Source: a virus. Taken from it: DNA of 64,000 nt. Positions 8,029 through 25,273 of the stretch are shown here, one piece after another. How positions within the stretch are numbered: position 1 is the stretch's first letter; every line of letters starts with the position of its first letter. The stretch lies in IMG/VR virus record IMGVR_UViG_3300045988_173816, positions 192,001 to 256,000 of that record. One strand, given 5' to 3'. Position numbers and translations under genes: made by a program. The notes under the pieces were generated by a model. That model was not told the origin of the DNA, made no database searches, and worked only from the letters and a program-made list of their open reading frames with translations.

Positions 8029-8511
8029 ATGGGTGCAAAAACTCGATTACCTTATGTTGAGGTGATTCGTGAAGTTAGTAAACAATTACACTTGAAGTAT
8101 GAAACAGTTGAAAACATTGTTTCCTACTATCGAGAAGTTTGCTTTGATTCAATTACCAAAGGGTATTCTTTCGATGTGTTTGAGGGTTTATTTCTAAAGG
8201 TAACAAGTCAAGATGAGCAAACTCGCAAGGTTTTACCTCAGACTTATTTGTTAAAACGTGTGAGTGAGTCTTTAGATTTATCGCTCACAGTTGTGCAGTC
8301 GGTACTACAAAAGTTCCAAGAGTTAACTTATCAAGAAGTTGCAAAAGGTTCAGCGGTATCCTACATCAACTTAGTTTCTTTTAACCCAAGAGCTACTAGG
8401 TCTTGGAATAAAGTGAAGGTTGGTTCAGCAGTTTTAACACTTAAGAAAGAGGTTGGAGTACAAGTTCGCTTGGTGTGTACTAAGGAATTTAAAGAATTGG
8501 TGGGTAAATAG
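8029..8511 (+). CDS. possible tandem HU/IHF-like DNA-binding protein
   Basis: ATG at 8029 after a GAGG RBS. Two consecutive segments with an HU-like pattern: EVIREVSKQLHLKYETVENIV...ITKGYSFDVFEGLFLKV and LLKRVSESLDLSLTVVQSVL...VAKGSAVSYINLVSFNP. Confidence 0.4.
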   Translation: MGAKTRLPYVEVIREVSKQLHLKYETVENIVSYYREVCFDSITKGYSFDVFEGLFLKVTSQDEQTRKVLPQTYLLKRVSESLDLSLTVVQSVLQKFQELTYQEVAKGSAVSYINLVSFNPRATRSWNKVKVGSAVLTLKKEVGVQVRLVCTKEFKELVGK

Positions 8512-8514
8512 CCA

Positions 8515-8658
8515 ATGGAAGGTAAAACTCACAGATTAGGTGGTACGGTGTGTGCAATGGCGGGTTTCATAACCTTGAAGGACTCAGGTTACTTGATTCA
8601 GAGTGATTTGATTTCTCCAGCGTTACAGTTTCTAGTCATTTACACAGCGGGGATTTAT
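8515..8658 (+). CDS. YdjM/DUF457-family membrane hydrolase, exon 1 (interrupted by an IStron)
   Basis: MEGKTHRLGGTVCAMAGFI... is the typical family N-terminus. As read, the frame hits TAA at 8662-8664, just inside the insert. Confidence 0.75.
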
Positions 8659-9140
8659 GGGTAACGAACCTGTTACAATAAATTTATAAAAATGTATAAG
8701 AACATAGAAAAATTTATATAGAACAGAACGCCCTTCGTATCTAGTGATAGGTGCGAACTCAACGTTAAATGCTTTGAACTCCTAAAGCCTTGTAGCCTAA
8801 ACAGTAGATGGAAACGTCAAGCTGAGTGGAACGAAAGTAGAAAAAAGTACAAGGATAGCATAAGGTGAAATAAAAGCTAATCAGTGCTTAAGTGAATAAA
8901 ATAGTGACCCTTAAGAAACGTTAGTCCTACGTGCAGTAATAATGGATGTTTAGCAGGGAAAGTCCTACGGTCATAAGACTATGGAAGACCTCCAACGACT
9001 ATCTCCTAGAGGGAGAGTAAAACCGCAAGCTAATGGCGGAGGAAAAATGTTGCACCTAATTTTGATTAGGTGAAGATATAGTCTGCGCTCATGTGAAAGC
9101 ATGAGAGGTCTGCTGGTGACAGTAAGACTGCATCAAGGGT
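8659..9140 (+). ncRNA. group I intron catalytic core (5' part of the IStron)
   Basis: No ORF. P7 pairing GACTAT (8997-9002) with ATAGTC (9078-9083), inside an R-like CAACGACTATC and an S-like AAGATATAGTCTGC. Hairpins TCTCC/GGAGA (9002-9016), CCGC/GCGG (9023-9039), CACCTAAT/ATTAGGTG (9053-9072) and CTCATG/CATGAG (9088-9105). U at 8658 precedes the insert and G at 11256 ends it. Confidence 0.7.
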
Positions 9141-9197
9141 TGCGCCTTGGTGTGAACAAGAAAAATACAGATTTTTAGAAAACTTTTATATTTTTAC

Positions 9198-9226
9198 TTT
9201 ACAAAATACCTTCAGTATGATAAACT
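9198..9226 (+). promoter_or_regulatory. internal promoter for tnpA
   Basis: TTTACA (9198-9203), 17 bp, TAAACT (9221-9226). Confidence 0.45.
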
Positions 9227-9254
9227 TAATGTAAGAATTAAGTGAGGTGTACTT

Positions 9255-9881
9255 ATGGTATTGATGTCTATAGGAAAATTTGCGAAGGAGTTAGGTGTTA
9301 CGCCTGAACATGTTCGCACAATGCACAGAACAGGTGAGGTAATCCCTGCTCGTATTTCAGAAAAAGGAACTAGATATTACTCTGAGGATCAACTAAGAGA
9401 GTTGAAAAACACTCAGTTTTCTCAAAGAGAAGAAAAAGTAGTAGCTTATTGCAGAGTTTCTAATAAGTCACAAAAAGATGATTTGGAGAAACAAGTTGAG
9501 AACGTAAAAGCGTATATGTGCGCTAAAGGTTACTCATTTGAAGTTATTACAGATATTGGTTCCGGTATCAATTATAAAAATAAAGGTTTGCAAGAGTTGA
9601 TTTCTTTAATTGATTCAAACCAAGTTACTAAAATTGTTATTCTTTATAAGGATAGATTAGTACGATTTGGTTTTGAGTTGATTCAATTACTTTGTGAATT
9701 GCATGATGCTGAAATTGAAATCATTGACAATTCAAAGTATAGTAAAGATGAAGAATTAACTGAGGATTTAATTCAAATTGTTACACTATTTGCAAATAGA
9801 CTTTATGGTTCACGGTCTAAAAAGACTAAGACACTAATTGAGAGGGTTTCTGATGTTACGAGGAATGAAAATCGCACTTGA
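9255..9881 (+). CDS. tnpA: IS607-family serine recombinase transposase
   Basis: MerR-like HTH (IGKFAKELGVTPEHVRTMHRTGEV) followed by a resolvase catalytic domain (AYCRVSNKSQKDDLEKQ, GSGINYKNKGL, ILYKDRLVRFGFE). Confidence 0.85.
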   Translation: MVLMSIGKFAKELGVTPEHVRTMHRTGEVIPARISEKGTRYYSEDQLRELKNTQFSQREEKVVAYCRVSNKSQKDDLEKQVENVKAYMCAKGYSFEVITDIGSGINYKNKGLQELISLIDSNQVTKIVILYKDRLVRFGFELIQLLCELHDAEIEIIDNSKYSKDEELTEDLIQIVTLFANRLYGSRSKKTKTLIERVSDVTRNENRT

Positions 9882-11040
9882 TTTAACTGGTGAGCAAGAA
9901 CAACAGATGTGGAAGTCTGTAGGGGTTGCTCGTTGGTCATATAACTACGCTATAACTAGATGTAAAGAACAATATTTAAAACACTTAAAAAATCCTACTT
10001 TACCTAAAACATTAACCGCAGGTGAAATTTTAAAAGAGTTGACTGTATTGAAGAGGACAACCCATCCTTGGTTGAAAGAGGTTGGTTCTAATGTTGTCAA
10101 ACAAGCAGTTAAAGATTGGAACGATGCTCGTAATCGGTTCTTTAAGGGGTTAGGTAAGGCTCCAAACTATAAATCTAAGAACAACTCTAAACCTAGCTTT
10201 TATGTAAACTATGAGACTTTAAGAAGAGTAAGTGGTGGTTTTAGAGGTGAGAAGTTAGGTTTTATAAAAACCACCCAACCTCTACCTAAAATACCAAAAG
10301 GAACTCATTACAAAAACCCAAGAATTTCTTTTGATGGAAAATTTTGGTATTTGTCTGTTTCTTATGAAGTTCAAGAGGTTTCAGTAGAGTTGACAGATTT
10401 AGTTATAGGTGTAGATTTAGGGATAAACACTTTAGCAACATTATCTACAGGTGAATTTATTGGGAACATCAATAAAAGTCGCAGAGTAAAACAGTTGGAG
10501 AAACAATTACGACGGGAACAACGTCACCTTGCGCGTCAGTTGCAAGCCAACACCAAAGGGTATCTCACAACTGAAAACGGTGGTAGAAAGCCGATTTATA
10601 AGCGACCTTTAGAGTTATGTTCTAATATTCAAGAAACCAAACGTAAGATTAAATTGCTATACCGTAAATTATCATCCATTCGTTTGAATCATATTCACCA
10701 ACTAACTTCTTATCTTGTAAACCAATTACCAAAAGGCATTGTAATTGAAGATTTGAATGTTAGAGGGATGATGAAAAACAGACACTTAGCGAAACACATT
10801 CAAAATGCAATGTTCTACGAAATTCGTAGACAGTTAGAATATAAGTGTTTACAGTACGGTATCTATTTAGTTGTTGCAGATCGTTTTTATCCTAGTTCTA
10901 AAACGTGCAGTTATTGTGGTAATATTAAGTCTGATTTGAAATTAAAGGACAGAGTTTACAAATGTGGCTCTTGTGGTTTAAAGAAAGATAGAGACTTAAA
11001 TGCAGCGGAAAATTTAGCTTATTATTTCTATAGAGGTTAA
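9865..11040 (+). CDS. tnpB: TnpB RNA-guided nuclease (IS605 OrfB family)
   Basis: MKIALDLTGEQEQ...ARWSYNYA N-terminus. RuvC motifs GVDLGINTLA, VIEDLNVRGM and DRDLNAAENL. Zinc ribbon CSYCG...CGSCG. Overlaps the tnpA end. Start at 9865 preferred over 9838. Confidence 0.85.
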   Translation: MKIALDLTGEQEQQMWKSVGVARWSYNYAITRCKEQYLKHLKNPTLPKTLTAGEILKELTVLKRTTHPWLKEVGSNVVKQAVKDWNDARNRFFKGLGKAPNYKSKNNSKPSFYVNYETLRRVSGGFRGEKLGFIKTTQPLPKIPKGTHYKNPRISFDGKFWYLSVSYEVQEVSVELTDLVIGVDLGINTLATLSTGEFIGNINKSRRVKQLEKQLRREQRHLARQLQANTKGYLTTENGGRKPIYKRPLELCSNIQETKRKIKLLYRKLSSIRLNHIHQLTSYLVNQLPKGIVIEDLNVRGMMKNRHLAKHIQNAMFYEIRRQLEYKCLQYGIYLVVADRFYPSSKTCSYCGNIKSDLKLKDRVYKCGSCGLKKDRDLNAAENLAYYFYRG

Positions 11041-11256
11041 TACCTTATGTACCCATCGCTACTGGGGAATTTAAGCCTATTGAGTGTTATATCAAATGAT
11101 AGTAGACACATGAGCTTTGCTCATGTGTCGAGGTCAGACACGTTGATGTAGGAAGTGAAAAACGAAACGGATAAGTCTATAAGTTTAAAACTTATAGCAA
11201 CATGAGTTTTCACAAAGTAAAGATATAGGTGTAAAAATCTATATTTTTCGTAGCGG
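11041..11256 (+). ncRNA. TnpB omega-RNA scaffold / intron 3' terminal segment
   Basis: Non-coding 3' end of the element. The block GTTATATCAAATGATAGTAGAC (11086-11107) is shared 21/22 with the second IS607 copy. Perfect 11-bp hairpin at 11105-11129. Hairpin CTATAAGTT/AACTTATAG. The true 5' end probably lies inside the tnpB 3' end. Confidence 0.6.
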
Positions 11257-11832
11257 GGTATGTGGTCGGATAATGACCATCATTGGGAGTCGAGTCCTTT
11301 AAAAGACCCAGCTTCTTGGTTACAGAATAAGCTTTTGCACATAGCAAATAGTCCGTACAAGAGGTTGGATGAGCGATTAAGTAGCAAACAGAAGAAAAAC
11401 TCTGTTCTGTATAAAACTTTGAAATTCATGAGGTGTATCCATCGGTCGTGGCAAACACATAGCGAGTTCACACTTCTCATGATATTGTGGTTGATGTTCA
11501 GCCCAACTTTCTTAGGATTTACAGGTAGGTTTGACCCTCTGTTATGGTTACTAATAGTCACAGGGTTTGGACTTGGAGTGATTTCCCATTTAGTGTTAGA
11601 TATGTTGACTACGGAGGGAATACGTTTCGCTCTTGGTGTTTTCATCAAAATATTCTTTCCGAACATTCCTATGTTCACAACTATTCGCTTGGTTCCCGGT
11701 ATCTCAGCCTTTAAAACAGGTTCTGAGTGGGAAATGGCAATTAGAAAAGCCTTATCTATCATACAATATGGTATGTTAGTTTTGGTATTGTTGGACTTAG
11801 GTGGCATATCTGTGTTACATTATTTTAGTTGA
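11257..11832 (+). CDS. YdjM/DUF457-family membrane hydrolase, exon 2
   Basis: GMWSDNDHHWESS (family D-x-DH..S block), HRSWQTHS, GVISHLVLDMLTTEGI, and several TM helices. In frame with exon 1 once 8659-11256 is removed. Confidence 0.75.
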   Translation, partial: GMWSDNDHHWESSPLKDPASWLQNKLLHIANSPYKRLDERLSSKQKKNSVLYKTLKFMRCIHRSWQTHSEFTLLMILWLMFSPTFLGFTGRFDPLLWLLIVTGFGLGVISHLVLDMLTTEGIRFALGVFIKIFFPNIPMFTTIRLVPGISAFKTGSEWEMAIRKALSIIQYGMLVLVLLDLGGISVLHYFS

Positions 11833-11987
11833 GGGTGCATGTGCATACTTCAAACCGTTGTCTTATTGTTATTGGCAGTAGCAATAAGAGAGCAGAACGA
11901 AAATATTTCGTATTGTAGTAGGATAAACTAATAAAAATATAAGGTAAAGTTGCTCCAACAACTTTATACAAGATTTGAGGTTTATCT

Positions 11988-12893
11988 ATGAATATTTCAA
12001 AATTTGCAAGAGGTGGTTTAGCTACCTTATTAGCTTCTGCAACTTTATTGGGTGCAGGTTATGTTTCAGAGGTTAGTGGTATCACTAACTTCACACAAGC
12101 AACTGAGGTTCAAGCTTTAGGTGGTGCAGGTAACTTTGACTCTAATTCTGAGTCTATGGAGCGCTTGCAAGATAAAGTGTATAGCGAAGTTGCTGATAAC
12201 ACTTATCGTACAACTACGGGTGATGGTATTTCTGGTTCTAAGGTTTATAATCAGAAAGGTGAAGTCACAAGTACCTTCGATAAGTTAACTGAGGGTGACA
12301 AGAATAAAGTTATTCAAGACATCAACAGGGCAGTTAAGAAAGCAGCTGATAAAGATGCTGCTGCGATTGAGTCTGGTGATACAGTGCAAAATGCTGTAAC
12401 TGAAGGAACTGTAAATCGTTTTTGGAAAGACATGAAAGAAGTTCGTAGTTCTACCGCTGGTTATTTGATTTCAGTAGTTACTGCTGACGTTGCACCAGAC
12501 TGGGCAGGAGCTTCAAACTTCCTATCTCCATTCTACCCATTCTTTAACACTGCTATTGCGGTATTCTTGATTTTGGCTTCATTCTCATTCTTCTTCCACC
12601 TTGCAGTGGCAATCTTCTATTTTATGACTCCTTCATTCCAATACTTTGTTAAAGGTTCTGAGGGAACTAAAGGTGGTTTCCATGGTTATGTAGCTAGTAT
12701 TATTCCAAAACAAGCTGTTTTGGCTAATGATCAGGCTATGGATAAAGGTGGTAATCCTCTCCTTATTTACATTGGTAAAACATGGATTATGATGTTAGCG
12801 TATGCTTTAATTTTGGTCTTCTTTGCAACGAACTCTATGTTAGTTCTAGTCGGCCCGATTTCATCATTATTCACTTCATTGGTGGGGCTTTAA
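11988..12893 (+). CDS. secreted/membrane protein, paralog family with 6755 and 12916 (T4SS-associated?)
   Basis: Signal peptide (LATLLASATLLGAGYV), a soluble domain, then a TM hairpin ...FFFHLAVAIFYFMTPSFQYFVKGSEG and C-terminal TM helices. Confidence 0.65.
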   Translation: MNISKFARGGLATLLASATLLGAGYVSEVSGITNFTQATEVQALGGAGNFDSNSESMERLQDKVYSEVADNTYRTTTGDGISGSKVYNQKGEVTSTFDKLTEGDKNKVIQDINRAVKKAADKDAAAIESGDTVQNAVTEGTVNRFWKDMKEVRSSTAGYLISVVTADVAPDWAGASNFLSPFYPFFNTAIAVFLILASFSFFFHLAVAIFYFMTPSFQYFVKGSEGTKGGFHGYVASIIPKQAVLANDQAMDKGGNPLLIYIGKTWIMMLAYALILVFFATNSMLVLVGPISSLFTSLVGL

Positions 12894-13901: not shown

Positions 13902-16900
13902 ATGTTTAAACCTAATAAGATTAAAGATATGAGTAAGTTTTCACGTTTGTGGGGTTCGTTGCGTGAAGATTCGATTTTGCTCTTTGGAGGAAAATCGTTA
14001 AATAAAGAAAAATCAACGAGTCCTTATATTCCGATGACTTTAGAGCAAGTTGCAATAGAAAATCGAAGAACTAAGGTGCGTAGAGGGTTTACTAGGTTTG
14101 TAGCTTTAGGTTCGGTATCCCTTTTATTGGGTTCTATTTCTTTGCAAGTAGGCAGTTCTGTTTTAGGATTAAAAGCAGATTATACGGTTGCTCACGCTGA
14201 TAATGCTCAAGGTAAGAAGAGTTCTGCTATGGAACGCTCTATTGACCAATTGAAGATTGCAGCAGGTGAAGCTGATGGTTCTTTATCGAGTGGTGCAAAA
14301 GCTTTGTCTCCTTCTGAGGTTAAGACCGTTGGGTTCTTTGTTTCTAACTGGTATTCTCCTTTTGTAACACAGGTTAAGACAAGCACAGGTGGTGTTGTTG
14401 GTGATTATCAATCAGATATTCAAAAACTGCTTACAACACATGCAGGTTTAGCTGAGGATCCAGCTGGTGAATTAGCGAAGATGGTTGCAGAAGTGGGAGC
14501 TAAGACAACTGAGAAGTTGTATTTGGCTAAGTCCGATGATGGTGGTCAAACGTGGACTGCTCTAAGTGAAGAAGCAACATATTATGAAGTATTATTGGGT
14601 TCAGTTGGTATTTTTCCAGAGTCTTTATTTACCACAGATGATGAGATCTCCTTGAAGAAGCGGTATCAGTATGATGAGAGCAAAGGCACAATCTTAGGGT
14701 TGGTTCGTGAAGCTTTAAAAGATGAGAAGTCCATTCAAAGACAATCTGTTGTTTATGAGTGGAACCCAAACCCAAGTAAAGAGCCGACAATTGCTCAAGC
14801 TACATTCTATACGAACTTTTCTTCGGTAGATAGTTCTAAATCTTGGGGTTCTACGGTATTGTCTTTAGACGGTCAAGACCCTTTGATTGCTAAGTGGTTT
14901 AAAGAACAACCATCAGATTTAACTGAACGTTTAAACGGTTATTTAAATGGTTTTATGGGTTCTGACGGTAAGTACACAAGTGTAGATAGTAGTTCAGGCT
15001 CCTTGAAAGGTTTTTATGATCGTTCTATTTATTCGGCTTCTATGTATGTGGATGGTTTCGGTAACTTAATTTCTGATACAGGTGCGAATAGCTTAGCTAG
15101 TTATGTCATTATGCCAGCTTCTCAAAACCCTATGATGTATGCTAGAAAGGTTACTGGAAATTCTTCATCTTCTGACTCTTCTAGTGATAAAGACAAGTCT
15201 AAGGATAAAGGGAAGGATAAAGAGACTTCTAACAGTAAAGAGAAATCTAAGACTTCTGAGACTGGTGTAGATGCTAAGATGTCTGCTATTTATAACGCTA
15301 AAGAGACTGGTGTAGGTCGTTCTATCGCTTCAAATAACTTGAACTCTGTTGCTTTGAATAAAGGTAAAGGGTATTTGAAAGTTGATGGAGAAAACGCTAC
15401 TCTTGGGGGTTCAGTAGATAAGAGCTTGACTTTTTACTCTGCTTTGACATCAGGTGAGAACTTAACTCATGATAGTGCAGATACAACAAAATTGATTTTC
15501 GGTATCTTCCCAGTTAACGTTTCTGACTTAGGTTCTGTGGTTGCAAGCTCATTGTATACACAGTGGTTGATTCGTAACGGTAACGAAAGTGAGACTTACA
15601 AAGGAGACGCAGGTAAGATTTTCGAGAATAAATCAGGGGGTTGGAACTATGGTGCTCCTTACTCTGAGATTCGTTCAGGTTCAGGTGATTTAGGGTTACC
15701 CCAAGGGAAACCTAAAGACTCTTACTATGTCTTTGGTGGAGGTGGTTCTGCCTTCGACTTATTAGCACATGCTAAAGGTGCTGATTCTTGGTCTGTATTC
15801 ACTTCTAAAGCTTTTTCAGATGATGTGTACAAGTGGAAGTCTAGTATGAGTGTCACTAAGCCAGTCATTGATGATATGATTACCTTCGATAGTGAGGGGT
15901 ATGGTTCAGGTAATTCTAAGTTTAAAAAACTTGGAGATAATGGTACTTTGCTTATAGGTAAAGCACAAGAGATTGAACTTCAATCTTCTCGCTTAGATGG
16001 CGGTGGGTATTGGAGAGGTCAAGGTTTAGCAGGTGGTTTGGTAGATACTGCAGGTGACGCTCCTAAAGACACTTCTGATAAGAAATACGCTGCGAATTTA
16101 TATGCTTCTACGGTGTTGGTTCGTGCAAACCCTTTGAATAAGGATATTCCTTACGTTATTAACTTAGATAATTCTTCTGTTATTGATGAAGATGCTTTGA
16201 AGTCTGCTTCTGATGGTGATGAGGAAGATTTAGACCATGTATTAAAGAATATGGCTTACTTTATGTTGAACCCAACTAAAGGTCGCGAGTATAAACAACG
16301 TTGGTCTAAGACCTTTATGAACCAAGCTTTATTGAGTTCATTAGAAGATATGATTGGTGCAAACACGGCTTCAAGTTATTCAGGTACAACTCGTTATTTG
16401 GAGTTGACAGGTTTTGCAACTATTCCAAGAATGAACGAGATTAAGTTTACAGACTACTTGTACTCTAAGTTTGCTTCTTGGGGTGTTACGATTTTAATTG
16501 TAGCTTCATTCTTGATGTTGATTTTCTTGTTTGTAGGTCAAATTCGAGTAGTACCGGCAGTTTTATCTATCTTAGCCTTTGGGTATCTGTTGTACAGCCC
16601 ACCTAAGATGATTGATGCTTCAACTCATTTGAGTAATCAGATTACTTCTTATTTCTTTAAGGATAAGTTCTTATTCTGGGTGATGGCGACACACCAAAAC
16701 TATTCAGATTCCGTAGCTCAGTTACAAAAAGCAGCAGAAGCTGGAAACTATGATAACTACACTGCTTTGCTAGTGAAACTACAAGGTGGTTGGGGTGGTT
16801 CTGAAAACGAAGGTGAAACTGATGTGTATGAGTGGCAACAAACCCTTGGTGCATCGGTTAAAGTTCGTTGGATGGCTCCTAAGAAGGATGGCTATATTCA

Positions 16901-17003
16901 ACAAGTGAAACGTGACTTGAAACAAGTAACCTCTGAGTCTGAGGACAAAGCGAACAAAGATAAAGAAGCAGATAAGTCTGCTGAGACTAAACAAGGAGAG
17001 TAG
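13902..17003 (+). CDS. 1033-aa surface/membrane protein of the secretion block
   Basis: N-terminal anchor/signal (FVALGSVSLLLGSISL...AHA). Low-complexity SSSSDSSSDKDKSKDKGKDKE. Two C-terminal TM helices. Lys/Asp-rich tail. Confidence 0.7.
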   Translation: MFKPNKIKDMSKFSRLWGSLREDSILLFGGKSLNKEKSTSPYIPMTLEQVAIENRRTKVRRGFTRFVALGSVSLLLGSISLQVGSSVLGLKADYTVAHADNAQGKKSSAMERSIDQLKIAAGEADGSLSSGAKALSPSEVKTVGFFVSNWYSPFVTQVKTSTGGVVGDYQSDIQKLLTTHAGLAEDPAGELAKMVAEVGAKTTEKLYLAKSDDGGQTWTALSEEATYYEVLLGSVGIFPESLFTTDDEISLKKRYQYDESKGTILGLVREALKDEKSIQRQSVVYEWNPNPSKEPTIAQATFYTNFSSVDSSKSWGSTVLSLDGQDPLIAKWFKEQPSDLTERLNGYLNGFMGSDGKYTSVDSSSGSLKGFYDRSIYSASMYVDGFGNLISDTGANSLASYVIMPASQNPMMYARKVTGNSSSSDSSSDKDKSKDKGKDKETSNSKEKSKTSETGVDAKMSAIYNAKETGVGRSIASNNLNSVALNKGKGYLKVDGENATLGGSVDKSLTFYSALTSGENLTHDSADTTKLIFGIFPVNVSDLGSVVASSLYTQWLIRNGNESETYKGDAGKIFENKSGGWNYGAPYSEIRSGSGDLGLPQGKPKDSYYVFGGGGSAFDLLAHAKGADSWSVFTSKAFSDDVYKWKSSMSVTKPVIDDMITFDSEGYGSGNSKFKKLGDNGTLLIGKAQEIELQSSRLDGGGYWRGQGLAGGLVDTAGDAPKDTSDKKYAANLYASTVLVRANPLNKDIPYVINLDNSSVIDEDALKSASDGDEEDLDHVLKNMAYFMLNPTKGREYKQRWSKTFMNQALLSSLEDMIGANTASSYSGTTRYLELTGFATIPRMNEIKFTDYLYSKFASWGVTILIVASFLMLIFLFVGQIRVVPAVLSILAFGYLLYSPPKMIDASTHLSNQITSYFFKDKFLFWVMATHQNYSDSVAQLQKAAEAGNYDNYTALLVKLQGGWGGSENEGETDVYEWQQTLGASVKVRWMAPKKDGYIQQVKRDLKQVTSESEDKANKDKEADKSAETKQGE

Positions 17004-17019
17004 AAAGGGGTTTAGCTAA

Positions 17020-19539
17020 ATGGAAACAACAAAGTTAAAACGATGGACTTTAGCAGGGGTATCATTAGTTACCCTTCTTTCTCCTAGTTTTTTATCAAGT
17101 GTAAGTGTCTTTGCACCTAGTATTGTTCATGCAGAGGAGGGTAAAGATAAAGAGAAAGATAAAGAGAAGGATAAGGATAAAGACAAAAAGTCTGATAAAG
17201 GTGAGAAGAGAAAAGACAATGCTCCGGGTGGTAAAAACTTAATTGACTCTCCTTTGACTTCTGCTTTGCTTGCAAATGGTCTTTCAAATGAGGATTATAC
17301 AGGGTTAGATACTAACTATCTTTACCGAGGGTATCCAGATATTGCAGACTATTCTCGAATTTACTACGGAAATATTATGGGTGATAATATTTCGACAAAT
17401 GGAGCCATTGTATTTAATATTGGCTCTTGGTCTGAGGGTCTTGCAACTATGTTCCCTAAGGTAGATAAGGTTAAAAACGTATCTACAAATGTTTCACCGT
17501 CTGATATTCGTTCTTCTATGCAAGATTATTTGAGTTTAGAGAAGTCTGAGAATGTAAGTCATCAAACTCTGTTACAAAGGTCTAAGTTAGGCTTTATAAA
17601 TGACCGTAAAGGTACATCTTCAACAGGCGCAGTTGACCAAAAGACTATGAAGCGTATATTCGCTCCTATTTCTTCAAATACGGTAGCAAAAGCTTCAACA
17701 CAAGATTTGAGCCAAGTTAAAGTAGGTGATGAAGTAGGGTTGAATGAAGATTACTTCATTCTTTCTAAGCGAAACTTCAACAACCATAAAGAGACTTTAC
17801 AAGACCAAATGGCTAAAGCTAATAAGTCCACAACAGGAACGGCAATACCACAAGAGGATGCGGTATCCTTATCTGCATTTGCTTTGTATACTGAGTCTCC
17901 GTTCTATTACCTCTCTTGGGGGTTGTATGATAATGGGTTGAGTACCAAAGCAGGTTCAAGTGGTGAGTTTAAGAAAATGTTGTTAGAGAAAAACGATGCT
18001 TTCTTTTACAATTACCAAATTGAAGCTGGAAAACCAGGTTATGGAGCTATGAAAGACTTCCTTGATTTTGGTTCTTTGTTCACAGTGATTATTCCTTATT
18101 TACGGGAGTCTAATAAGACTTTGTTACAATGGAGTGATACTTATGGAACTAAACCTTATGAGGGTTATGGAACTAAGCGTTCAGACTTAGATACGATTAC
18201 AGATAAAGAGTCTGAGGCTTATTATAAGACTTGGTTTAACTACTCGTCAGATAATGCGTATAGAACTTATACTGCTTGGGTTGACTACTTGTATGAGTTG
18301 GATATTGCAAGACCAGAGACTATTGAGTACGCAGGTCAGAAACAAACTGTTGTAGAGCCTATGAATCCGGCATCTTATACCATTCGTCCAATGGTTTTCT
18401 CTGAAAGTGAAATGTTGTATTATGGTTTGAAAGAATCTGATTTAACTCAAGTAGAGAAGAAAATTCAAGAGGTTTCAAAAGAGGTTCGTAATGATTGGTT
18501 AAACGTTATGAACTATTACACTCTTGATGATGTGGTTTTAAATACTGCGAGTTCTATGATTGCGACATTCGATTTCAACCGTATCTTCTCACAAAGTGGG
18601 TTTAACCAAAAACAAGTAGTATTTGAACCACAAGGGTTTGAGTTGAAGGCTTTTGGTTGGGATGCTTTCCTTCGTATGATTTTGCAAAATGCGACAGGTG
18701 AGAGTTTGGTTTATAACCAAACCTTGAAATCCGATATTTATGAGATTGTAGCTGAGAAAGACGGGTTTGTCACACTTTTTATGATGTGGTTTAACTCCTT
18801 CGTAGTTGTTTATTTGGTTCCAGCCTTGTTGATTTTAATATTGTGTTGCTTACCGATTGCTATGATGTTGTCTGTATTTGCTTCCTTCATTCGTCAAGAT
18901 AAGACTATGCTTAAAGCTTTTGCAACTGAGTGTATGATGCCTTTCCTAACGGTGTTGATTGTGAACATTATGTTAGCCTTTACGGTATCCATTCTTATGG
19001 GTGACGGTGGTTATCAGTTGGTTACAGGTAGCTTAGGTGAGAGTCAGTCTTTCAATTCTCCTAGGTCAACTATGGTTGTTCTAATATTTGTAACTACGGT
19101 TGCTTGTGGTATGTATTGGTACGCTGTGTTAAATTTATTTAAAGGTTTATATCGAAACGCTCGCGTTGTTGCAATTCCACTTAAAGCAGGGGTTCAAATG
19201 GCTGCAAGTATGGTTGTTGGTAACTTTGATAAGGCTAAAGCTATTTTAGACGGTTCTGCAAGTCAAGGTGGTGGTTCTACTTCTGGTCGATTTAGAGATA
19301 CAAATCCTACTGGTGGAAATAGAACAAGTGCTGATTATAGTAAGTCTAACTTAGGTGGTGCTAAGTTTAAACTTAAGAAGGTATTTAGGAGAAGAGGTCG
19401 CTCTATGGAACCTTCTGAAGCTTCTAAACGTGCAAATCGTGTAGCAGAAGAGACTTTAAATGATGTATTTAATAAGAAAGAGACAACGCAGTCTAAATTT
19501 GATGCGTTGGATAAAGAAATGAACAAATCCGAAGACTAG
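17020..19539 (+). CDS. 839-aa polytopic membrane protein (VirB6/TcpH-like topology)
   Basis: Signal peptide ending SIVHA. KDKEKDKEKDKDKDKK repeat. Large exposed domain. At least 5 TM helices in the C-terminal third. Confidence 0.65.
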   Translation: METTKLKRWTLAGVSLVTLLSPSFLSSVSVFAPSIVHAEEGKDKEKDKEKDKDKDKKSDKGEKRKDNAPGGKNLIDSPLTSALLANGLSNEDYTGLDTNYLYRGYPDIADYSRIYYGNIMGDNISTNGAIVFNIGSWSEGLATMFPKVDKVKNVSTNVSPSDIRSSMQDYLSLEKSENVSHQTLLQRSKLGFINDRKGTSSTGAVDQKTMKRIFAPISSNTVAKASTQDLSQVKVGDEVGLNEDYFILSKRNFNNHKETLQDQMAKANKSTTGTAIPQEDAVSLSAFALYTESPFYYLSWGLYDNGLSTKAGSSGEFKKMLLEKNDAFFYNYQIEAGKPGYGAMKDFLDFGSLFTVIIPYLRESNKTLLQWSDTYGTKPYEGYGTKRSDLDTITDKESEAYYKTWFNYSSDNAYRTYTAWVDYLYELDIARPETIEYAGQKQTVVEPMNPASYTIRPMVFSESEMLYYGLKESDLTQVEKKIQEVSKEVRNDWLNVMNYYTLDDVVLNTASSMIATFDFNRIFSQSGFNQKQVVFEPQGFELKAFGWDAFLRMILQNATGESLVYNQTLKSDIYEIVAEKDGFVTLFMMWFNSFVVVYLVPALLILILCCLPIAMMLSVFASFIRQDKTMLKAFATECMMPFLTVLIVNIMLAFTVSILMGDGGYQLVTGSLGESQSFNSPRSTMVVLIFVTTVACGMYWYAVLNLFKGLYRNARVVAIPLKAGVQMAASMVVGNFDKAKAILDGSASQGGGSTSGRFRDTNPTGGNRTSADYSKSNLGGAKFKLKKVFRRRGRSMEPSEASKRANRVAEETLNDVFNKKETTQSKFDALDKEMNKSED

Positions 19540-19633
19540 TTTTCGGTCGTAGAGAGTTTTTATTTTCTGCGTAGGTGCAAAGTCTGGAAGAATTGGCTTT
19601 GTACTTTTTAACAAAATTGAAAGTTGGATAGCT

Positions 19634-21811
19634 ATGTTTATAGAGCCTATGTTGAGGTATATTCTACTTCCTTTCATCATATTGATAGCAAGTTTGTTAG
19701 TACCTTTGATTTTAAAGTTCTATCGAAAGCGAGCTAAGAAGAAGATTAAGCAGAGGAAGTCTGAGTTAAGGAATTTAAAACAAGATAGGGTATCCCTACA
19801 AAATCAAGTTAAGTCAAAAGATTTAACAGACTTTGAGAAAGAGGAAACTCAAAAAGAGTTAGCAAACACGTTAGAGGATGAAGCAAAAGCTCGATTTAAG
19901 TTGTTAACTCAAAGAGCATCTTTAGCGTTTGCGAACTTTGTAACATGGATAGCTCGCTTAGTTTCTATTCTGATGCTTACTTTTGGTTGGACATTTACGG
20001 TTGCTATGGTAGGTGCTTCAACTGCGGTTATTTATGTATCAGTTATGTCTACTGTGGATTGTAGTGCTGATGGTACTGTTAAACAACACAAACATAAAGA
20101 TGAGAATAACAAGTCTGAAAAAGGTGAGTATAAAGGTGGTGAGGGTGAACTACCTAAAGCAGAAGGTATTAAACCTCACGTTGAAGATTTCCGACAGATT
20201 ATCTATAAGAAATTTGGTATTGATGATATTGGAGGTTATCGACCCGGTGACCCACAAGACCATGGACAAGGTTTGGCTTTGGACGTTATGGTTCCTGATG
20301 GTTCTAAGTTAGGTGATGATGTTGCTCAGTTTGCTATTGATAATATGGAAGCAGCAGGTATTACCTACATTATTTGGAAACAACGCTTTTATAGGGGTGT
20401 TGATAACAAATATGGTGCAGCTAACACTTGGAACAAAATGGAAGATCGAGGTAGTAAGACTGAGAACCATTTTGACCATGTACATATTAGCTTTGGAGCT
20501 AGTAAAGGTAGTGGAGAGATTAAAGATGGAGGTAGTTCATCTAGTTCTTCAAGCTATTCTAAGAAGTCTGTGGATAGCTCCACTTATGGTTTTGGTGACT
20601 TAACCGATGAAGTTACAGGTTGGGCGAAGTCTTATAGTGGTTTCACTTTTATTGGGGACTCCCTAGGAGTTGGTGTTGAGCCTAAACTAAAAAGTTATTT
20701 CCCTAACTCAACCTTTGATAGTAAAGTTTCAAGAGCATTTGAACACTCAGACAGTACACTTAGCGGTATCGAAACTGCTAAAAAGTTAGAGTCTGAAAAG
20801 AAAGTCAAAGACATTGTAGTTATAGCATTAGGTACAAACCAAATGCCTACACCACTACTTATGGACTCTATGGTTGATGCTCTACCTAGTGCTAAGAAAA
20901 TTATTTGGGTGACTACGGCTTCACAAGGGGGTGGAGGTTCTTACAATACTGTCGAGCATGATAAGATTGCTGAAGTGATTAAGTCTTATGTAGGTAGTCG
21001 TTCAAATATGGCTTACCTAGACTGGAACCGATATGTTGAAGAGAAGTTTAATTGGTCAGAATTGACCTCAGATTCGGTTCACATGAATGATAAGGGGTAT
21101 GTCTTATACTCTAAGTTCCTTACTCGTGGTATTTATGATGTTGTTGAGGGTGGCTCAAGTGACTCTTCTGAGGATAGCTTACTTACAAAAGCTATTAAGA
21201 AGATTAAATGCAAACCGAAGCATCATCATCACGGTACTTCTACGAAGTCTAAACCTAGTGGTCTTTCTTCAACAGATGGTCAAGACAATCCACCAGCAGA
21301 TGCGTTTACTTCTTGGGCTTATCGTCCAGAAGATTTACCGGCAGGGTTGAAACCTTATATTCTTGACCCTAAAAATTACGGTATGGACTTTGGTTTACCA
21401 GGTAATGGATGGTTTCAGACTTCTAACCCTGAGTTAAATGGTCAGTGTGTCGCTTTGACTATTTCACTTGGTGATTGTGTTTGGGGTAGACCTCATGCGA
21501 ATGTTCAAGGTAATGGTATTGATCAAGCAAATGCTTGGGCGAGTATTTTTGGAAACTCTGTAACTACAACTCCAAGACGAGGTGCTATTTTCTCAAGTAA
21601 AGAACACCCTGTATATGGTCACACAGGTATTGTATGTACGGTGTTTAAAGATGGTTCAATTTTAACTTGTGAGCAAAACTTACCACTTGCAGGTTGGAAT
21701 TATCGTGGTGAGCAGTATGTTTGGTGTTTCCGTATGTATCGCGAAGAGCAGTGGAAGGCAGTTGGGATGACTTTTGCGTATGATGATACAAAAACACCGA
21801 TTTTAAAATAA
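19634..21811 (+). CDS. three-domain cell-wall hydrolase: LAS/M15-like peptidase + SGNH esterase + CHAP
   Basis: N-terminal TM helices. DHGQGLALDV ... HFDHVHISF (H-x6-D and H-x-H). FIGDSLGVG, ALGTNQ and DSVHMND (SGNH blocks). NGQCVALT ... GHTGIVC ... EQN (CHAP Cys/His). Confidence 0.75.
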   Translation: MFIEPMLRYILLPFIILIASLLVPLILKFYRKRAKKKIKQRKSELRNLKQDRVSLQNQVKSKDLTDFEKEETQKELANTLEDEAKARFKLLTQRASLAFANFVTWIARLVSILMLTFGWTFTVAMVGASTAVIYVSVMSTVDCSADGTVKQHKHKDENNKSEKGEYKGGEGELPKAEGIKPHVEDFRQIIYKKFGIDDIGGYRPGDPQDHGQGLALDVMVPDGSKLGDDVAQFAIDNMEAAGITYIIWKQRFYRGVDNKYGAANTWNKMEDRGSKTENHFDHVHISFGASKGSGEIKDGGSSSSSSSYSKKSVDSSTYGFGDLTDEVTGWAKSYSGFTFIGDSLGVGVEPKLKSYFPNSTFDSKVSRAFEHSDSTLSGIETAKKLESEKKVKDIVVIALGTNQMPTPLLMDSMVDALPSAKKIIWVTTASQGGGGSYNTVEHDKIAEVIKSYVGSRSNMAYLDWNRYVEEKFNWSELTSDSVHMNDKGYVLYSKFLTRGIYDVVEGGSSDSSEDSLLTKAIKKIKCKPKHHHHGTSTKSKPSGLSSTDGQDNPPADAFTSWAYRPEDLPAGLKPYILDPKNYGMDFGLPGNGWFQTSNPELNGQCVALTISLGDCVWGRPHANVQGNGIDQANAWASIFGNSVTTTPRRGAIFSSKEHPVYGHTGIVCTVFKDGSILTCEQNLPLAGWNYRGEQYVWCFRMYREEQWKAVGMTFAYDDTKTPILK

Positions 21812-21834
21812 TACAGAAAGTGGTTTAGATAGAT

Positions 21835-22392
21835 TTGAAAATGATGAAGTGGTTTATTTATATTTTAGTAAGTGTTAGTTTAGGTGGGTTAGTTGCTTTG
21901 GGTATCCTCTATTTCCGTGGTAGTTCTAATTCAGAAAGTGGGGAAACTTCTTCTACGGTTACTTCTTCTACTAAGCAAGAAGAAACTAAAGGTGTAGAAG
22001 ATAAGGTTCAGAGTAATTTGGAGGTAAATTTAGCAAGAGCACGTGGTTATTTGTCTGAAGGGTACCAAGTAGCAGAAACAAGTGGGATTAACGAACAAAG
22101 AGAGCAGTTAGAAAGTTTGTTTACAAATTTCAGAAACGGTAAAAGTGATACTCGTTTGAAAGAGGACTCCAGTGGTATCTCCTTACGCTACGCGATTGAA
22201 AAGCAAGGGTACAAGTTAAAAGGAGATAGTTTTGAAGTTTGGACAACTAAAGACTCTGATGTATATAATTTGTTGTTTATCTTGAACGAAGGTAAAAATG
22301 ATGATATGTATTTAGTCTTGTCTTATGAGAAGCAAGCAAATGTTTATCACATCTTGTATTTATATGGGGGTCGTCCAGATGTATTTGGTTAA
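21835..22392 (+). CDS. membrane-anchored protein
   Basis: N-terminal TM helix WFIYILVSVSLGGLVALGILYF, then a Ser/Thr-rich linker. The start could be the ATG at 21841. Confidence 0.6.
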   Translation: MKMMKWFIYILVSVSLGGLVALGILYFRGSSNSESGETSSTVTSSTKQEETKGVEDKVQSNLEVNLARARGYLSEGYQVAETSGINEQREQLESLFTNFRNGKSDTRLKEDSSGISLRYAIEKQGYKLKGDSFEVWTTKDSDVYNLLFILNEGKNDDMYLVLSYEKQANVYHILYLYGGRPDVFG

Positions 22393-22510
22393 AATACCTC
22401 TCAGAAGTCTCAAATTGCCCCAGATTCTATTTTAAATTGTAAGTGGTAAATTTCTACGTTATTAACTTAAACTTGAACAGAGAGCAAATTAGAGCTTTAA
22501 AATAAGATTG

Positions 22511-22548
22511 CCAAGTAAACGAAAAGTTTGCTTGGTTTTATTATTTTA
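22511..22548 (+). terminator. rho-independent terminator
   Basis: 10-bp stem CCAAGTAAAC/GTTTGCTTGG followed by a T-rich run. Confidence 0.7.
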
Positions 22549-22560
22549 GTAAATGGTTTC

Positions 22561-22589
22561 TTGCGTAAATTTAAAAAATGTTGTAAAAT
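22561..22589 (+). promoter_or_regulatory. sigma-A type promoter
   Basis: TTGCGT (22561-22566), 17 bp, TAAAAT (22584-22589). Confidence 0.5.
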
Positions 22590-22629
22590 AAAACTAATAA
22601 TTAAATTTGAGATTTTAGGAAGTGAAACT

Positions 22630-22857
22630 ATGTTAAAAGATTCTCGAACAGGTTGGATTGCAGACCTTGTAGTAGGTAGTAAAGTGGGTGTTTCTCATAA
22701 AGGTAGTCTTTATGAGGGTACTGTTTCTTTAATTACTGCTTTAGGGGTGTTGTTGGTTCGATGTGAGAATAATTTAAAATTTAAGATTATGTCGGATGGT
22801 TACAGTTCCACTAAAGAATCGGAGATTTTACCGTATGAAGATTTGGAGAAAAGCTAA
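22630..22857 (+). CDS. small hypothetical protein (75 aa)
   Basis: ATG at 22630 after an AGGAAG RBS. The track's start at 22528 lies upstream of the promoter. Confidence 0.55.
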   Translation: MLKDSRTGWIADLVVGSKVGVSHKGSLYEGTVSLITALGVLLVRCENNLKFKIMSDGYSSTKESEILPYEDLEKS

Positions 22858-23407
22858 AGTATTTGGTGGGGTGTTATTATCAGCTTCGATTATCGGAACA
22901 GGGGTATCCACTTATTTGTTGAAAACTTCTGAGGGTGAAAACCAAGTGATTTCTTTGAGTCGAGTTCAATCCGTACTAACGGGTGAAAAAAGTAAAGGTC
23001 AAATTCAGTATGAAAATGCTTGGTCTGAGCAGATAGAGTTGGAGTCTAAGGTAAAACCTTATGAAAACTATCTGATAAATTGGCTCTCTACTTATGTTGG
23101 TCGTAAAGGTTTTCAAGGTCAAAACACAGGAAGTTTAAAATTTGGTGATTTAGAGAACAAAGGTTCTTATACCAATATGGAGGATTTAGTTGCTTTATAT
23201 CCTAATTTGAGTGGTGTTATTGAAAGAGTTGATATTCAATATAGCTATGACTCAGTAAGTAAGCAGTTAGTTCAAAAGATTTCTTTGTATAAAAGGGGTG
23301 TAGAGGGGTATCGCCAAGCCACTGTCATTTATGACTCAGTGGGTTCTGTGGTTGATTATACACTAGGTAGTTTTGTAAAAGTAGGTGGTTCTAATGAAAA
23401 AGATTAA
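22835..23407 (+). CDS. membrane-anchored protein (single N-terminal TM, VirB8/PrgL-like topology)
   Basis: ATG at 22835 after GGAG. TM helix VFGGVLLSASIIGTGVSTYLL followed by a soluble domain of about 160 aa. Confidence 0.5.
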   Translation: MKIWRKAKVFGGVLLSASIIGTGVSTYLLKTSEGENQVISLSRVQSVLTGEKSKGQIQYENAWSEQIELESKVKPYENYLINWLSTYVGRKGFQGQNTGSLKFGDLENKGSYTNMEDLVALYPNLSGVIERVDIQYSYDSVSKQLVQKISLYKRGVEGYRQATVIYDSVGSVVDYTLGSFVKVGGSNEKD

Positions 23408-24032
23408 AGCGAAGGTGCTTTTGTGGTTTTTACACCTACTTGATTTAAGATTATCAAATAAAGCGAAAAGGATTTTAGGTTTTGGGTCTCTAATTATTGT
23501 ATTTCTTGGGTTTATATTTTTCGTAGTTTCAAACACTTTGCAGTCTCATAGTGAAGGTGAGAGATTAAAAAGGGAGAGTCGAGTTACTAAAGCAACTAAA
23601 GAGGTTGTTTCAGATTATGCAGAGGAAACATTTGCGACTAATCATTTGAGTTTAAGTGCTACTCAATGGGAGATTAAGGAGTCAAATTTCGATTATTCTT
23701 TAGCTAAGACTTATATGACTTATTTAGCTTCTGTGGAAGATAGTAAGAGTGCAGAAAGAGCTTATTCTGCTTTACCTTGGGTATCCTCAGAGGTGAGTGA
23801 GCCTTTATTACATTGGTCTAATGAAACACCAAGTACAGTAACTAGGTTATTGTCTTTAAGAACTTTATCGAGAGTTTACACTTTTAAAGAGTTTGATAAA
23901 TGGTTTGGTTTATTTGATGTCTCTTCTACAAACACAGTAGGTACTGAAGTGCGTTCGTTGGTTTCTGTTGAAATGGTCGTAAAAGGTGGGAAAGTGTCAT
24001 ATTGGAAGATTGAAGAAGGGGGATTCAGATAA
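23394..24032 (+). CDS. membrane-anchored protein (single N-terminal TM)
   Basis: ATG at 23394 after AGGTGG. TM helix ILGFGSLIIVFLGFIFFVV followed by a soluble domain. Confidence 0.5.
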   Translation: MKKIKAKVLLWFLHLLDLRLSNKAKRILGFGSLIIVFLGFIFFVVSNTLQSHSEGERLKRESRVTKATKEVVSDYAEETFATNHLSLSATQWEIKESNFDYSLAKTYMTYLASVEDSKSAERAYSALPWVSSEVSEPLLHWSNETPSTVTRLLSLRTLSRVYTFKEFDKWFGLFDVSSTNTVGTEVRSLVSVEMVVKGGKVSYWKIEEGGFR

Positions 24033-25258
24033 TGTCTGATTCAAATTCAAATTCTAAAAGGAATTATTCGGATGGTTATTGGTTGGTAAAGCCTCAATTG
24101 GGGAAATTAACGGTAACAAACTTAGTAAACTTTGCAGAAGCAGAAGGGGCGTATGGAGTAGCTTCAAAGGGTATCCTCAGACTCGGTAAGTCTGCTATGT
24201 TCTTTGGAGTTTATATTGTTCTTTGTTTATTATTATCTTTGATTGTTAAGAATTGGTTTGTTAGTTTGTGTATTTGGGTTCTATTTTTCCCATTGCCTTT
24301 TAGACTGATTTCTCTTTTTGTTTTTGATGAGCGAAGAGTTCGTAAAGAGTTTAAATTGCGTGAAGAACTAAAATCTAAAACAGATACTTCTTTATACTCA
24401 ACTTTCTTTGGTATTTATGACATAGATAATAACTTTCCTTATGTAACCTATATGTTGGATGGAAGTTTGGGTATTTTCCTTCGTTGTGTGCGTAAGACGC
24501 AGGTAGGAAATATTCAAGAGAAAGCTTTTAATCACAGTCAAGGTTTGGCTGATTTTTATAATCGTTGTGCTCAGTTGGGAATTAAACCTGAGTTGATTGA
24601 TATTCAAGCTTCAAACTCTTATGATGAGCGTTTTGACGATTTGTACAATCACTTAAATGAGGTTTCTTCTCCTACGATGCAGAAGATTTTAGCTTCCATG
24701 TACCATCATTGGGAAGATAATGCCAATAATTCTCAGTTGACTTATGAGTATTTTTTGGTTCGTGGGGTGGGTGACCCAACTGTCTTTTGGGACAGAGTTA
24801 CAAACTTGATGTCAGCTCTTATGGGTGCCAGTTATAAACGTATTCAAGTATTGAACCAAGATCAAATTGCAACATTGATTAGTGATTTATACGGTTTAGA
24901 AGAATTTCCAATTACAGATGCGATGGATCAAGCAGTTAAAAAATCTGATGCTTCTAGTTTGCGTTTGCTTTGGGTAGGTGACGCACAAAACCGTAAGAAA
25001 CAAGTAAATCGTTCTATGTATGATAATAGACAACAAAAGGTTCAAACAACTGAGTCTAGGGCATCAGGTAAAACAAATAAACAAAAATCAGAGAAACAAA
25101 GTAGTTCTGAGGTATTAGATTTGTTTGCAGATTCACCTAGAGGTGTAGCTTCTGGAATGACTGGTTTGTTAGAACCTTCAAAAGAAGATAAGCAAAAGGT
25201 ATCTTCAAATCGCAGTGGTTCTTTAAACGGTTCAGATGAGTTAGATTTGTTTAGTTAA
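24032..25258 (+). CDS. membrane protein of the secretion block
   Basis: ATAATG overlap with the upstream stop. Two TM helices, then a soluble domain. Ser/Lys-rich tail. Confidence 0.6.
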   Translation: MSDSNSNSKRNYSDGYWLVKPQLGKLTVTNLVNFAEAEGAYGVASKGILRLGKSAMFFGVYIVLCLLLSLIVKNWFVSLCIWVLFFPLPFRLISLFVFDERRVRKEFKLREELKSKTDTSLYSTFFGIYDIDNNFPYVTYMLDGSLGIFLRCVRKTQVGNIQEKAFNHSQGLADFYNRCAQLGIKPELIDIQASNSYDERFDDLYNHLNEVSSPTMQKILASMYHHWEDNANNSQLTYEYFLVRGVGDPTVFWDRVTNLMSALMGASYKRIQVLNQDQIATLISDLYGLEEFPITDAMDQAVKKSDASSLRLLWVGDAQNRKKQVNRSMYDNRQQKVQTTESRASGKTNKQKSEKQSSSEVLDLFADSPRGVASGMTGLLEPSKEDKQKVSSNRSGSLNGSDELDLFS

Positions 25259-25273
25259 GATAGGTGGTTTTAG

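Follow-up and report, generated by a model that had tools for sequence, protein, structure and literature searches.

IS607-type (group B) IStrons, in which a group I intron is joined to a TnpB-bearing insertion sequence (IS), insert after TGGG, AGGG or GAGG and end in CGG, and their 5′ exon ends in G while the first intron base is U (PMC4227781, PMC13565253). CboIStron, which lies on the Clostridium botulinum BKT015925 plasmid p1BKT015925, is composed in this order of a group IA2 intron, an IS607 TnpA, TnpB and an omega-RNA (10.1101/2023.11.20.567912; Mortman & Sternberg, NAR 2026). For this element TGGG as target and target-adjacent motif (TAM) and UCGG as scaffold end were determined experimentally (10.1101/2023.11.20.567912), and the role of the CGG trinucleotide was likewise established by experiment (PMC13521648). 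Splicing with G at position −1, the TGGG TAM and scarless excision are known from experiments on CboIStron and BcISt1 (10.1101/2023.11.20.567912; PMC4227781; PMC13521648). Here we describe a related locus in a 64-kb stretch of DNA (positions 192 001 to 256 000 of IMG/VR record IMGVR_UViG_3300045988_173816; the whole stretch is called the window hereafter). We are highly confident that window positions 8662–11256 are an IStron of the IS607 family (group B) which is intact and probably active. It lies in sense orientation at a TGGG within a ydjM-family gene, and this gene belongs to a ∼284-kb plasmid-like human oral element that encodes a type IV secretion system (T4SS). Group I intron, IS607 TnpA, TnpB and an omega-RNA whose 3′ end is shared with the intron are all intact and follow the published order, and every component named in a preliminary description of this DNA was found in place. 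What we observed are the anatomy and boundaries of the element, its homology and covariation, catalytic residues that are intact, and a population around it that is polymorphic and mobile. It is a new member of a well-characterized IStron class, whose mechanism, including the conflict between intron and guide RNA, has already been published.

The open reading frame (ORF) map of the + strand shows a 49-codon ORF (8515–8664) and a 190-codon ORF (11260–11832) with a 208-aa and a 400-aa ORF in between, and without splicing the reading frame of exon 1 ends at TAA 8662–8664, which are the first three bases of the element. Joining the outer parts in silico at 8661/11257 gave a 240-aa YdjM protein that is colinear with its homologs (IYGGMW). 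The joined protein matched the Pfam family YdjM (PF04307) with 38.8 bits (cutoff 29) in a single match that crosses the junction, which confirms the split YdjM gene of the preliminary description. The same description had the join recreate the D-x-DH block of the family, which is not the case because this motif lies wholly within exon 2. A search with the joined protein returned 117 homologs, the close ones being 240 aa long, which is one residue more than a join across 8659–11256 provides. The exact spliced 240-aa product was not present as an intact gene in a collection of 15 billion proteins.

The residue at issue fixes the left boundary. Deletion of 8659–11256, as first proposed, is indeed in frame, but it gives AGIYGMW where 13 of 13 aligned homologs read AGIYGGMW. 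Empty-site DNA, which in intact alleles is TTTATGGGGGTATG and is also given as TATGGGGGTATG, has TGGGGG; intact alleles in syntenic contigs read GGGATTTATGGGGGTATGTGG (L002, L004) and ...TATGGTGGTATG... (L001, L003). From the homologs and the empty-site DNA it follows that the insert is 8662–11256 and that the 5′ exon ends in G8661 and not in U8658, whereas the proposed right end at G11256 was borne out by the empty site and the right-end alignments. With the boundaries marked by slashes, the occupied site is TATGGG/TAAC...GCGG/GGTATG and the empty site TATGGG/GGTATG; owing to the GG ambiguity, inserts of 8660–11254 or 8661–11255 are equivalent. Splicing after U8658 and G11256, which would create ATTTAT/GGTATG and a YdjM short of one glycine, would agree with the in-frame deletion and with the U that almost every group I intron has at −1. 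It is, however, extremely improbable in view of the two glycines kept in all homologs, the TGGGGG of the empty site, a covariation-supported P1 in which exon GGG pairs with CCC and the next-pairing U is the first base of the intron, and the experiments on BcISt1 and CboIStron that found G at −1 and scarless junctions (PMC4227781; 10.1101/2023.11.20.567912). The argument that U is required at −1 does not apply here, since group B IStrons have G at this position (PMC4227781). Splicing after G8661 and G11256 is predicted to restore ...TAT GGG GGT ATG..., with the RNA junction TATGGG/GGTATG (ATTTATGGG/GGTATG; in longer form ...GGGATTTATGGG/GGTATGTGGTCGG...), a correction by 3 nt of the junction ATTTAT/GGTATG given before.

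Both ends were compared with those of known elements. In alignments with SrISt1, CboIStron and CbISt3 conservation begins exactly at TGGG/TAAC, the sequence upstream of TGGG being unrelated, and stops exactly at CGTAGCGG/, with ...TTTTTCGTA(G/T)CGG/ as the right-end consensus across the aligned IStrons. Over its first 505 nt the insert is 75–76% identical to these three elements, and identical left and right ends were observed in >20 further relatives by a motif scan of GTDB genomes. A site ending in GG, a G at the end of the 5′ exon, a CGG terminus and the absence of a target duplication place the element in group B. IStrons of group A (IS200/IS605), such as CdISt1, are likewise chimeras of an IA2 intron and a TnpB-bearing IS with an omega-RNA that overlaps the 3′ splice site, but their TnpA is of the tyrosine (HUH) type, their target is TTGAT, U stands at −1 and the 3′ end is TCAG (PMC4227781), where the window element has a serine recombinase, TGGG and CGG. 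SrISt1 (Selenomonas ruminantium pSRC1), which is the best DNA match (76.5%), and CbISt3 (phage c-st) are 2583 and 2559 bp long compared to 2595 bp here (PMC4227781); they share both ORFs, a target ending in GG, the CGG 3′ end, the 5′ exon G and intron subgroup IA2 with the window copy, while genera and target genes differ. The TnpA of CbISt3 (L016 3582–4181) has Asn in place of the catalytic Ser that the window TnpA keeps (YCRVN versus YCRVS), and CbISt3 may not be capable of autonomous transposition. CboIStron resembles the window element in the order of its parts, in the TGGG TAM and target, in the left end TAA.. and the right end ...TTTTTCGTA(N)CGG, in the helix between its pseudoknot (PK) strands PK-1 and PK-2, in the AU-rich stem, in its location on a large extrachromosomal element and in an intron ∼75% identical over 500 nt. 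It differs in its right end (UCGG compared to GCGG here), in a shorter tip of the RAGATH-18 hairpin and in host and target gene, the host here being a human oral element; CboIStron is also experimentally validated, whereas the window copy is known from sequence. Megablast of 8400–12000 against the PLSDB plasmids gave no match, and homologous IStrons surfaced only with the more sensitive blastn. A 26-mer of the left end had no match in JGI metagenomes; matches of an 18-mer at 36 JGI and 10 IMG/VR loci were rejected as copies and regarded as chance, because none of these loci has an intron core downstream.

The first ∼0.5 kb of the insert, described before as ORF-free with group I hallmarks in a layout of the IA2 type, proved to be just that. 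An E-value scan of 8400–11500 gave a full-length match to the Rfam model RF00028 (Intron_gpI) at 8869–9105 with 41.7 bits (E 1.5e-8), and the RNAalifold consensus of the window copy with SrISt1, CboIStron and CbISt3 has a group IA2 architecture with compensatory changes in 42 of 145 pairs. The R and S elements, P7, P7.1, P8 (9053–9072) and P9 (9088–9105) picked out in the preliminary description all lie on covariation-supported helices of this consensus. The consensus structure, to which we added P7 as a pseudoknot, was mapped on 29 aligned relatives, and the same structure with partners slid by 1–3 columns served as control. Standard pairs were found in 92.2% of the cells compared to 38–44% in the slid controls, 60 pairs were changed on both sides compared to 15–25, and the covariation score was 0.332 compared to 0.05–0.08. 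The core elements of the intron are invariant across the relatives, and the window copy retains 136 out of 142 pairs of the consensus. In P1, exon G8659–G8661 and intron U8662 pair with GCCC 8730–8733; the three GGG/CCC pairs were present in 27 of 27, 27 of 27 and 26 of 27 sequences, and the U pairs with A or G. With U8662 as the first intron base, this P1 agrees with the published account in which the U at the wobble position belongs to the intron.

Of the two ORFs enclosed, both had been correctly named as IS607 serine recombinase and TnpB. TnpA scored 208.6 bits against NF033518 (IS607 transposase; cutoff 110), is 62% identical to the CboIStron TnpA and keeps serine at the catalytic position. 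TnpB scored 286 bits against NF040570, above the cutoff, contains OrfB_IS605 and Cas12f1-like TNB domains, is 55% identical to CboTnpB and matches solved TnpB structures (PDB 8iaz, E 3.9e-59). Its RuvC residues D193, E304 and D386 and its zinc-finger residues C357, C360, C376 and C379 are invariant in the alignment (A7). An exact look-up of the 400-aa TnpB with TTG start gave no match, and gene callers start the protein at ATG 9853, which corresponds to 395 aa.

The structured 3′ end noted in the preliminary description contains a RAGATH-18 RNA (61.3 bits, gathering score 44.9). RNAalifold on 23 right ends revealed a long-range helix between CGNUAC, upstream of RAGATH-18, and GUANCG, immediately before the terminal G, and the central pair of this helix covaries (AU 12, CG 8, UA 1, GU 1). 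The corresponding CGCUAC/GUAGCG helix of the window is the PK-1/PK-2 interaction, the 3′ half of which in CboIStron overlaps nucleotides needed for splicing and excision (PMC13521648). A long stem of AU-rich inverted repeats has been described for group B IStrons (PMC4227781); in the window an AU-rich stem encloses the ORFs, and a 3′ direct repeat is able to pair locally with the 3′ inverted repeat. The duplex of 9155–9205 with 11205–11256 was calculated at −27.3 kcal/mol and the local terminal hairpin at −9.6 kcal/mol. According to these folds 11214–11249 would pair with 9160–9200 in the intron form or with a local partner in the omega-RNA hairpin. The exclusion of one fold by the other accounts for the published conflict between splicing and guide; the same pairing switch was described for CboIStron (PMC13521648). 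The preliminary description was right to propose that splicing and the guide RNA compete, a competition at the shared 3′ end that had already been demonstrated for CboIStron (10.1101/2023.11.20.567912; PMC13521648).

A different view of the locus is plain gene disruption, with a ribozyme that is inactive in this context and a ydjM pseudogene in the carriers. Splicing is predicted here from sequence, library assays have shown that it can be lost through the 3′ exon context (PMC13521648), and ydjM may be dispensable, being the target of a second IStron in sister elements. Against disruption stand the 136 intact pairs and the invariant core, the sense orientation of the element together with the in-frame join, and the carrier exons. 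The ydjM alleles of the window and of the carrier contig L010 have diverged by 9% (65 differences in 726 bp of exon); of the codon changes 53 are synonymous and 5 non-synonymous, and neither a frameshift nor a stop occurs. We regard disruption as unlikely, and take the locus to be an intact and probably active IStron. Four points weigh against this reading. The window intron does not reach the RF00028 gathering score of 50, and with gathering thresholds applied to the full window Rfam reported only two RAGATH-18 RNAs, at 11076–11154 and 61781–61860, and no intron; the general model under-scores this subfamily: a related intron (IStron-B, see below) obtains 12.6 bits (E 1.9) although 103 of its 128 projected pairs are canonical. 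When P10 pairing of the 3′ exon with the bases 5′ to GCCC was looked for by eye, only one G–C pair was seen, and for this reason we do not claim a P10. The internal promoter of the preliminary description could not be confirmed: two 9/12 consensus matches lie upstream of tnpA (9193–9226), but the region total was 9 compared to 9.2 expected from shuffles. Finally, splicing in the present host and exon context is a prediction from homology.

By analogy to the tested elements, the window copy would be able to splice, to transpose and to cleave; indirect signs of transposition and cleavage are the coexistence of occupied and empty alleles, related copies at other TGGG sites and the island of identity described below. 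At the RNA level the 5′ 0.5 kb would fold as the group IA2 ribozyme, exon GGG and the first intron U would pair with GCCC to form P1, and the AU-rich stem would loop out tnpA and tnpB and carry the 3′ end to the catalytic core, so that splicing after G8661 and G11256 would yield the 240-aa YdjM. At the DNA level the serine recombinase TnpA would excise and insert the element at the GG within TGGG with no duplication, and TnpB with the omega-RNA (scaffold 11041–11256, guide 11257–∼11272) would cut an empty TGGG-flanked site, upon which the element would be copied back in. Because splice acceptor, scaffold end and recombination site all fall on one set of 3′ nucleotides, splicing and guide maturation would exclude each other. 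The 3′ terminus of the window element is GCGG and not TGGG; in CboIStron a 3′ end that differs from TGGG prevents self-targeting.

Occupied and empty ydjM alleles coexist in the population, and empty ones are common. Copies of the window variant, called A1, are 99.7–99.8% identical across independent oral metagenome contigs (window, L010 3408–6002, L012), and a variant A2 was found at the same ydjM site in four more contigs (L140–L143 2309–4901), with copies 99.8–99.9% identical to each other. Compared to A1, the A2 element is 95% identical in TnpB and 94% in DNA. The flanks of A1- and A2-carrying contigs are only 78–95% identical, their relatedness is independent of the variant, and the flanks of the window (A1) are closest to those of an A2-carrying contig. 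When the window and L010 were compared in steps of 200 bp, identity was 63–93% over the backbone and 98–100% over 8662–11256 (8 differences in 2595 bp), and the transitions coincide with both element ends. In the comparisons with L010 and L012 the change in identity falls no more than 18 nt from the left end and 11–53 nt from the right end. Between A1 and A2, 34 synonymous versus 14 non-synonymous changes were counted in tnpA and 32 versus 21 in tnpB, both ORFs remaining open; all 4 touched intron pairs are kept, and the RAGATH-18 hairpin tip is altered on both arms. Judged by these changes the element evolves under selection for all its functions, yet it can clearly vary, and therefore the near-identity within each variant points to recent spread and not to constraint. 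Assembly collapse is ruled out as its cause, because the assemblies are independent and stem from different samples.

From this island of identity it appears that the variants have recently spread to one and the same site, with homing as the likeliest route. The most economical account is that guided TnpB cuts the empty allele and the element is then copied in from a carrier. The island could also stem from independent TnpA insertions at a strong hotspot or from ordinary homologous recombination between co-resident elements, with no role for TnpB cleavage. TnpA prefers TGGG, the highly conserved region next to the junctions would favour crossovers near the element, and the backbones of the syntenic contigs look mosaic. 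The window alone, however, contains 281 TGGG sites on both strands, so that repeated random insertion by TnpA at one site is improbable, yet 7 of 7 examined A1/A2 contigs from separate samples share a single site; general recombination, moreover, is not expected to stop so close to both ends. We consider an origin of the island without TnpB a serious if somewhat doubtful possibility. Flank co-conversion was examined as a proof of homing and is uninformative, because all alleles, empty ones included, share a conserved stretch of ∼20–50 nt beside the junction.

Most of the empty alleles examined (L001–L004 6144–6167; L152–L158 444–467) retain TGGG. Variants at the TAM position, all of them synonymous, were TGGT in L001 and L003 as well as in the IStron-B alleles L005 and L006, and CGGT in L158. 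Every sampled empty allele has 1–2 mismatches to the predicted guide of the window, at positions 3, 10, 12 or 15. In this small sample such TAM and guide variants may be resistance variants. It is quite possible, and we propose it tentatively, that the near-identical copies at one site are what allelic homing guided by TnpB/omega-RNA, in effect a gene drive, has left behind in nature among oral conjugative megaplasmid-like elements, and that TAM (TGGT, CGGT) or guide variants act as resistance alleles which keep the insertion polymorphic. According to reviews such spread of an OMEGA system still awaits validation (PMC13565253). Group I introns with homing endonucleases (phage T4 td, Twort) resemble the window element in their IA2 core and in the occurrence of a near-identical element at one site in diverged alleles next to coexisting empty ones. 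Unlike them, the window element has an RNA-guided nuclease (TnpB) and is predicted to be able to transpose via TnpA as well; being RNA-guided, TnpB would retarget itself at each new site.

A different IStron, referred to as IStron-B, was observed in the same ydjM gene of sister elements (L006 5470–7761, also L005, L007 and L008). It occupies another TGGG(G) of ydjM, behind codon ∼156, contains an ORF of 58 aa resembling ribbon-helix-helix (RHH)/Arc proteins and a 413-aa TnpB but no tnpA, and has the right end ...CGACTGACGG. Its intron is 64% identical to that of the window, and homology was shown by this alignment in place of the Rfam score. Similar oral contigs carry IStrons that are flanked by pieces of other genes and whose TnpB is 87–90% identical to that of the window (L144–L147 2309–4904; L148–L151). 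The copy in L144–L147 follows GATGGG in a 298 + 84-aa gene that adjoins a MucBP/LPXTG protein, with flanks that join in frame at the one junction examined, and another related copy lies between a 241-aa and an 82-aa ORF. The TnpB family is diverse, with 2018 relatives at E ≤ 1e-80. In the motif scan of GTDB genomes (L017–L092) the intron subfamily occurred in many Bacillota and as single copies in metagenome-assembled genomes (MAGs) labelled Treponema, Prevotella, Synergistaceae and Thermotogae, and a goat-rumen MAG labelled Desulfovibrionaceae (JAFTDU01) has dozens of intron copies without recognizable tnpA or tnpB. If the binning is right, the subfamily is distributed more widely than the picture of clostridia and bacilli holds.

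The window contains a second IS607 element, 50 kb from the IStron, which the preliminary description had taken for an intron-less sibling. An Rfam scan of 59200–62300 indeed found no intron, but TnpA and TnpB are only 36–37% identical to those of the IStron, so that it is a distant relative and not a close sibling. It has a covarying pseudoknot of GTTACA 61763–61768 with TGTAAC 61914–61919, its right end is ...GTGTAACAG (CAG, not CGG), and TATGGGG lies ∼110 nt upstream of its tnpA.

Over the 8.6 kb compared, the window is identical to part of a 284 100-bp human oral metagenome contig (L011), and many syntenic contigs of 250–300 kb were found in human oral metagenomes. The conjugative backbone suggested before is supported by a CHAP/GDSL cell-wall hydrolase (19634–21811), a VirB4/TraG-like ATPase (27157–29337) and an FtsK/SpoIIIE-type protein (29532–32021); SNF2 and DnaB-like helicases and a clamp-loader-like protein are further neighbours. 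The T4SS-like genes stand among very large proteins (1033, 839 aa) without Pfam match (13902–32021), and all ORFs of ≥200 aa in the window are on the + strand. The ‘Inocle’ giant plasmids of oral Streptococcus (PMC12340149) were considered by description only; GC content is 36% here compared to 32% reported for Inocles. Coordinates of all features are collected in Table 1.

Table 1. Features of the IStron, its host gene and the second IS607 element (window coordinates)
Feature	Position	Strand	Evidence
Complete IS607-type (group B) IStron, 2595 bp, no target-site duplication	8662–11256	+	Empty site TATGGG/GGTATG; left-end and right-end alignments; identity to L010 falls at both ends
TGGG: TnpA target motif and TnpB TAM; GGG is exon strand of P1	8658–8661	+	Left-end alignments, published TAM
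Terminal CGG; G11256 is omega-G/3′ splice site, last base of omega-RNA scaffold and part of TnpA crossover dinucleotide (predicted)	11254–11256	+	Right-end alignments
ydjM exon 1, 49 codons, ends in TGGG	8515–8661	+	ORF 8515–8664, alignment to intact 240-aa homologs, empty-site DNA
ydjM exon 2, 191 codons and stop	11257–11832	+	ORF map, alignment to homologs
Group IA2 intron ribozyme, P1 to P9.2	8662–9160	+	Rfam RF00028, RNAalifold consensus, covariation in 29 sequences
P1	8659–8662/8730–8733	+	Consensus structure
P2	8734–8743/8748–8757	+	Consensus structure
P3	8760–8766/9046–9052	+	Consensus structure
P7	8997–9002/9078–9083	+	Consensus structure, added as pseudoknot
P7.1	9003–9007/9011–9015	+	Consensus structure
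P7.2	9023–9026/9036–9039	+	Consensus structure
P8	9053–9058/9067–9072	+	Consensus structure
P9	9088–9094/9099–9105	+	Consensus structure
P9.1	9107–9115/9120–9129	+	Consensus structure
P9.2	9130–9138/9145–9153	+	Consensus structure
5′ arm, AU-rich long-range inverted repeat closing off the ORF region	9160–9200	+	Inverted repeats I6 and I21
tnpA, IS607 serine recombinase, 208 aa, MerR-type helix-turn-helix and resolvase domain, Ser69	9255–9881	+	NF033518, PF00239, PF13411
tnpB, RNA-guided nuclease, 395 aa from ATG 9853	9853–11040	+	NF040570, alignment A7, gene callers, PDB 8iaz
omega-RNA scaffold	11041–11256	+	RF03064, covarying long-range helix, folds
PK-1 CGCUAC pairing with PK-2 GUAGCG	11056–11061/11250–11255	+	RNAalifold, 23 right ends
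RAGATH-18 core	11076–11154	+	RF03064, 61.3 bits, gathering score 44.9
3′ arm, AU-rich inverted repeat	11214–11249	+	Inverted repeats, duplex folds
omega-RNA terminal hairpin	11219–11228/11238–11247	+	Folds
Predicted omega-RNA guide, about 16 nt, GGTATGTGGTCGGATA; first bases of exon 2	11257–11272	+	Position directly 3′ of scaffold; length from PMC13565253
Intron-less IS607: tnpA 59987–60610, tnpB 60564–61745, RAGATH-18 61781–61860 (67 bits), right end at 61921	59987–61921	+	

Taken together, the element itself brings no new principle; it adds a new host context and a diverged family, and its value lies in the population that surrounds it. Whether TnpB drives allelic homing between plasmids in the wild is a question that has so far been addressed mainly with laboratory constructs. 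Public oral metagenomes offer a ready-made natural dataset for it, which is equally suited to asking whether TAM or guide mismatches give resistance to TnpB homing.

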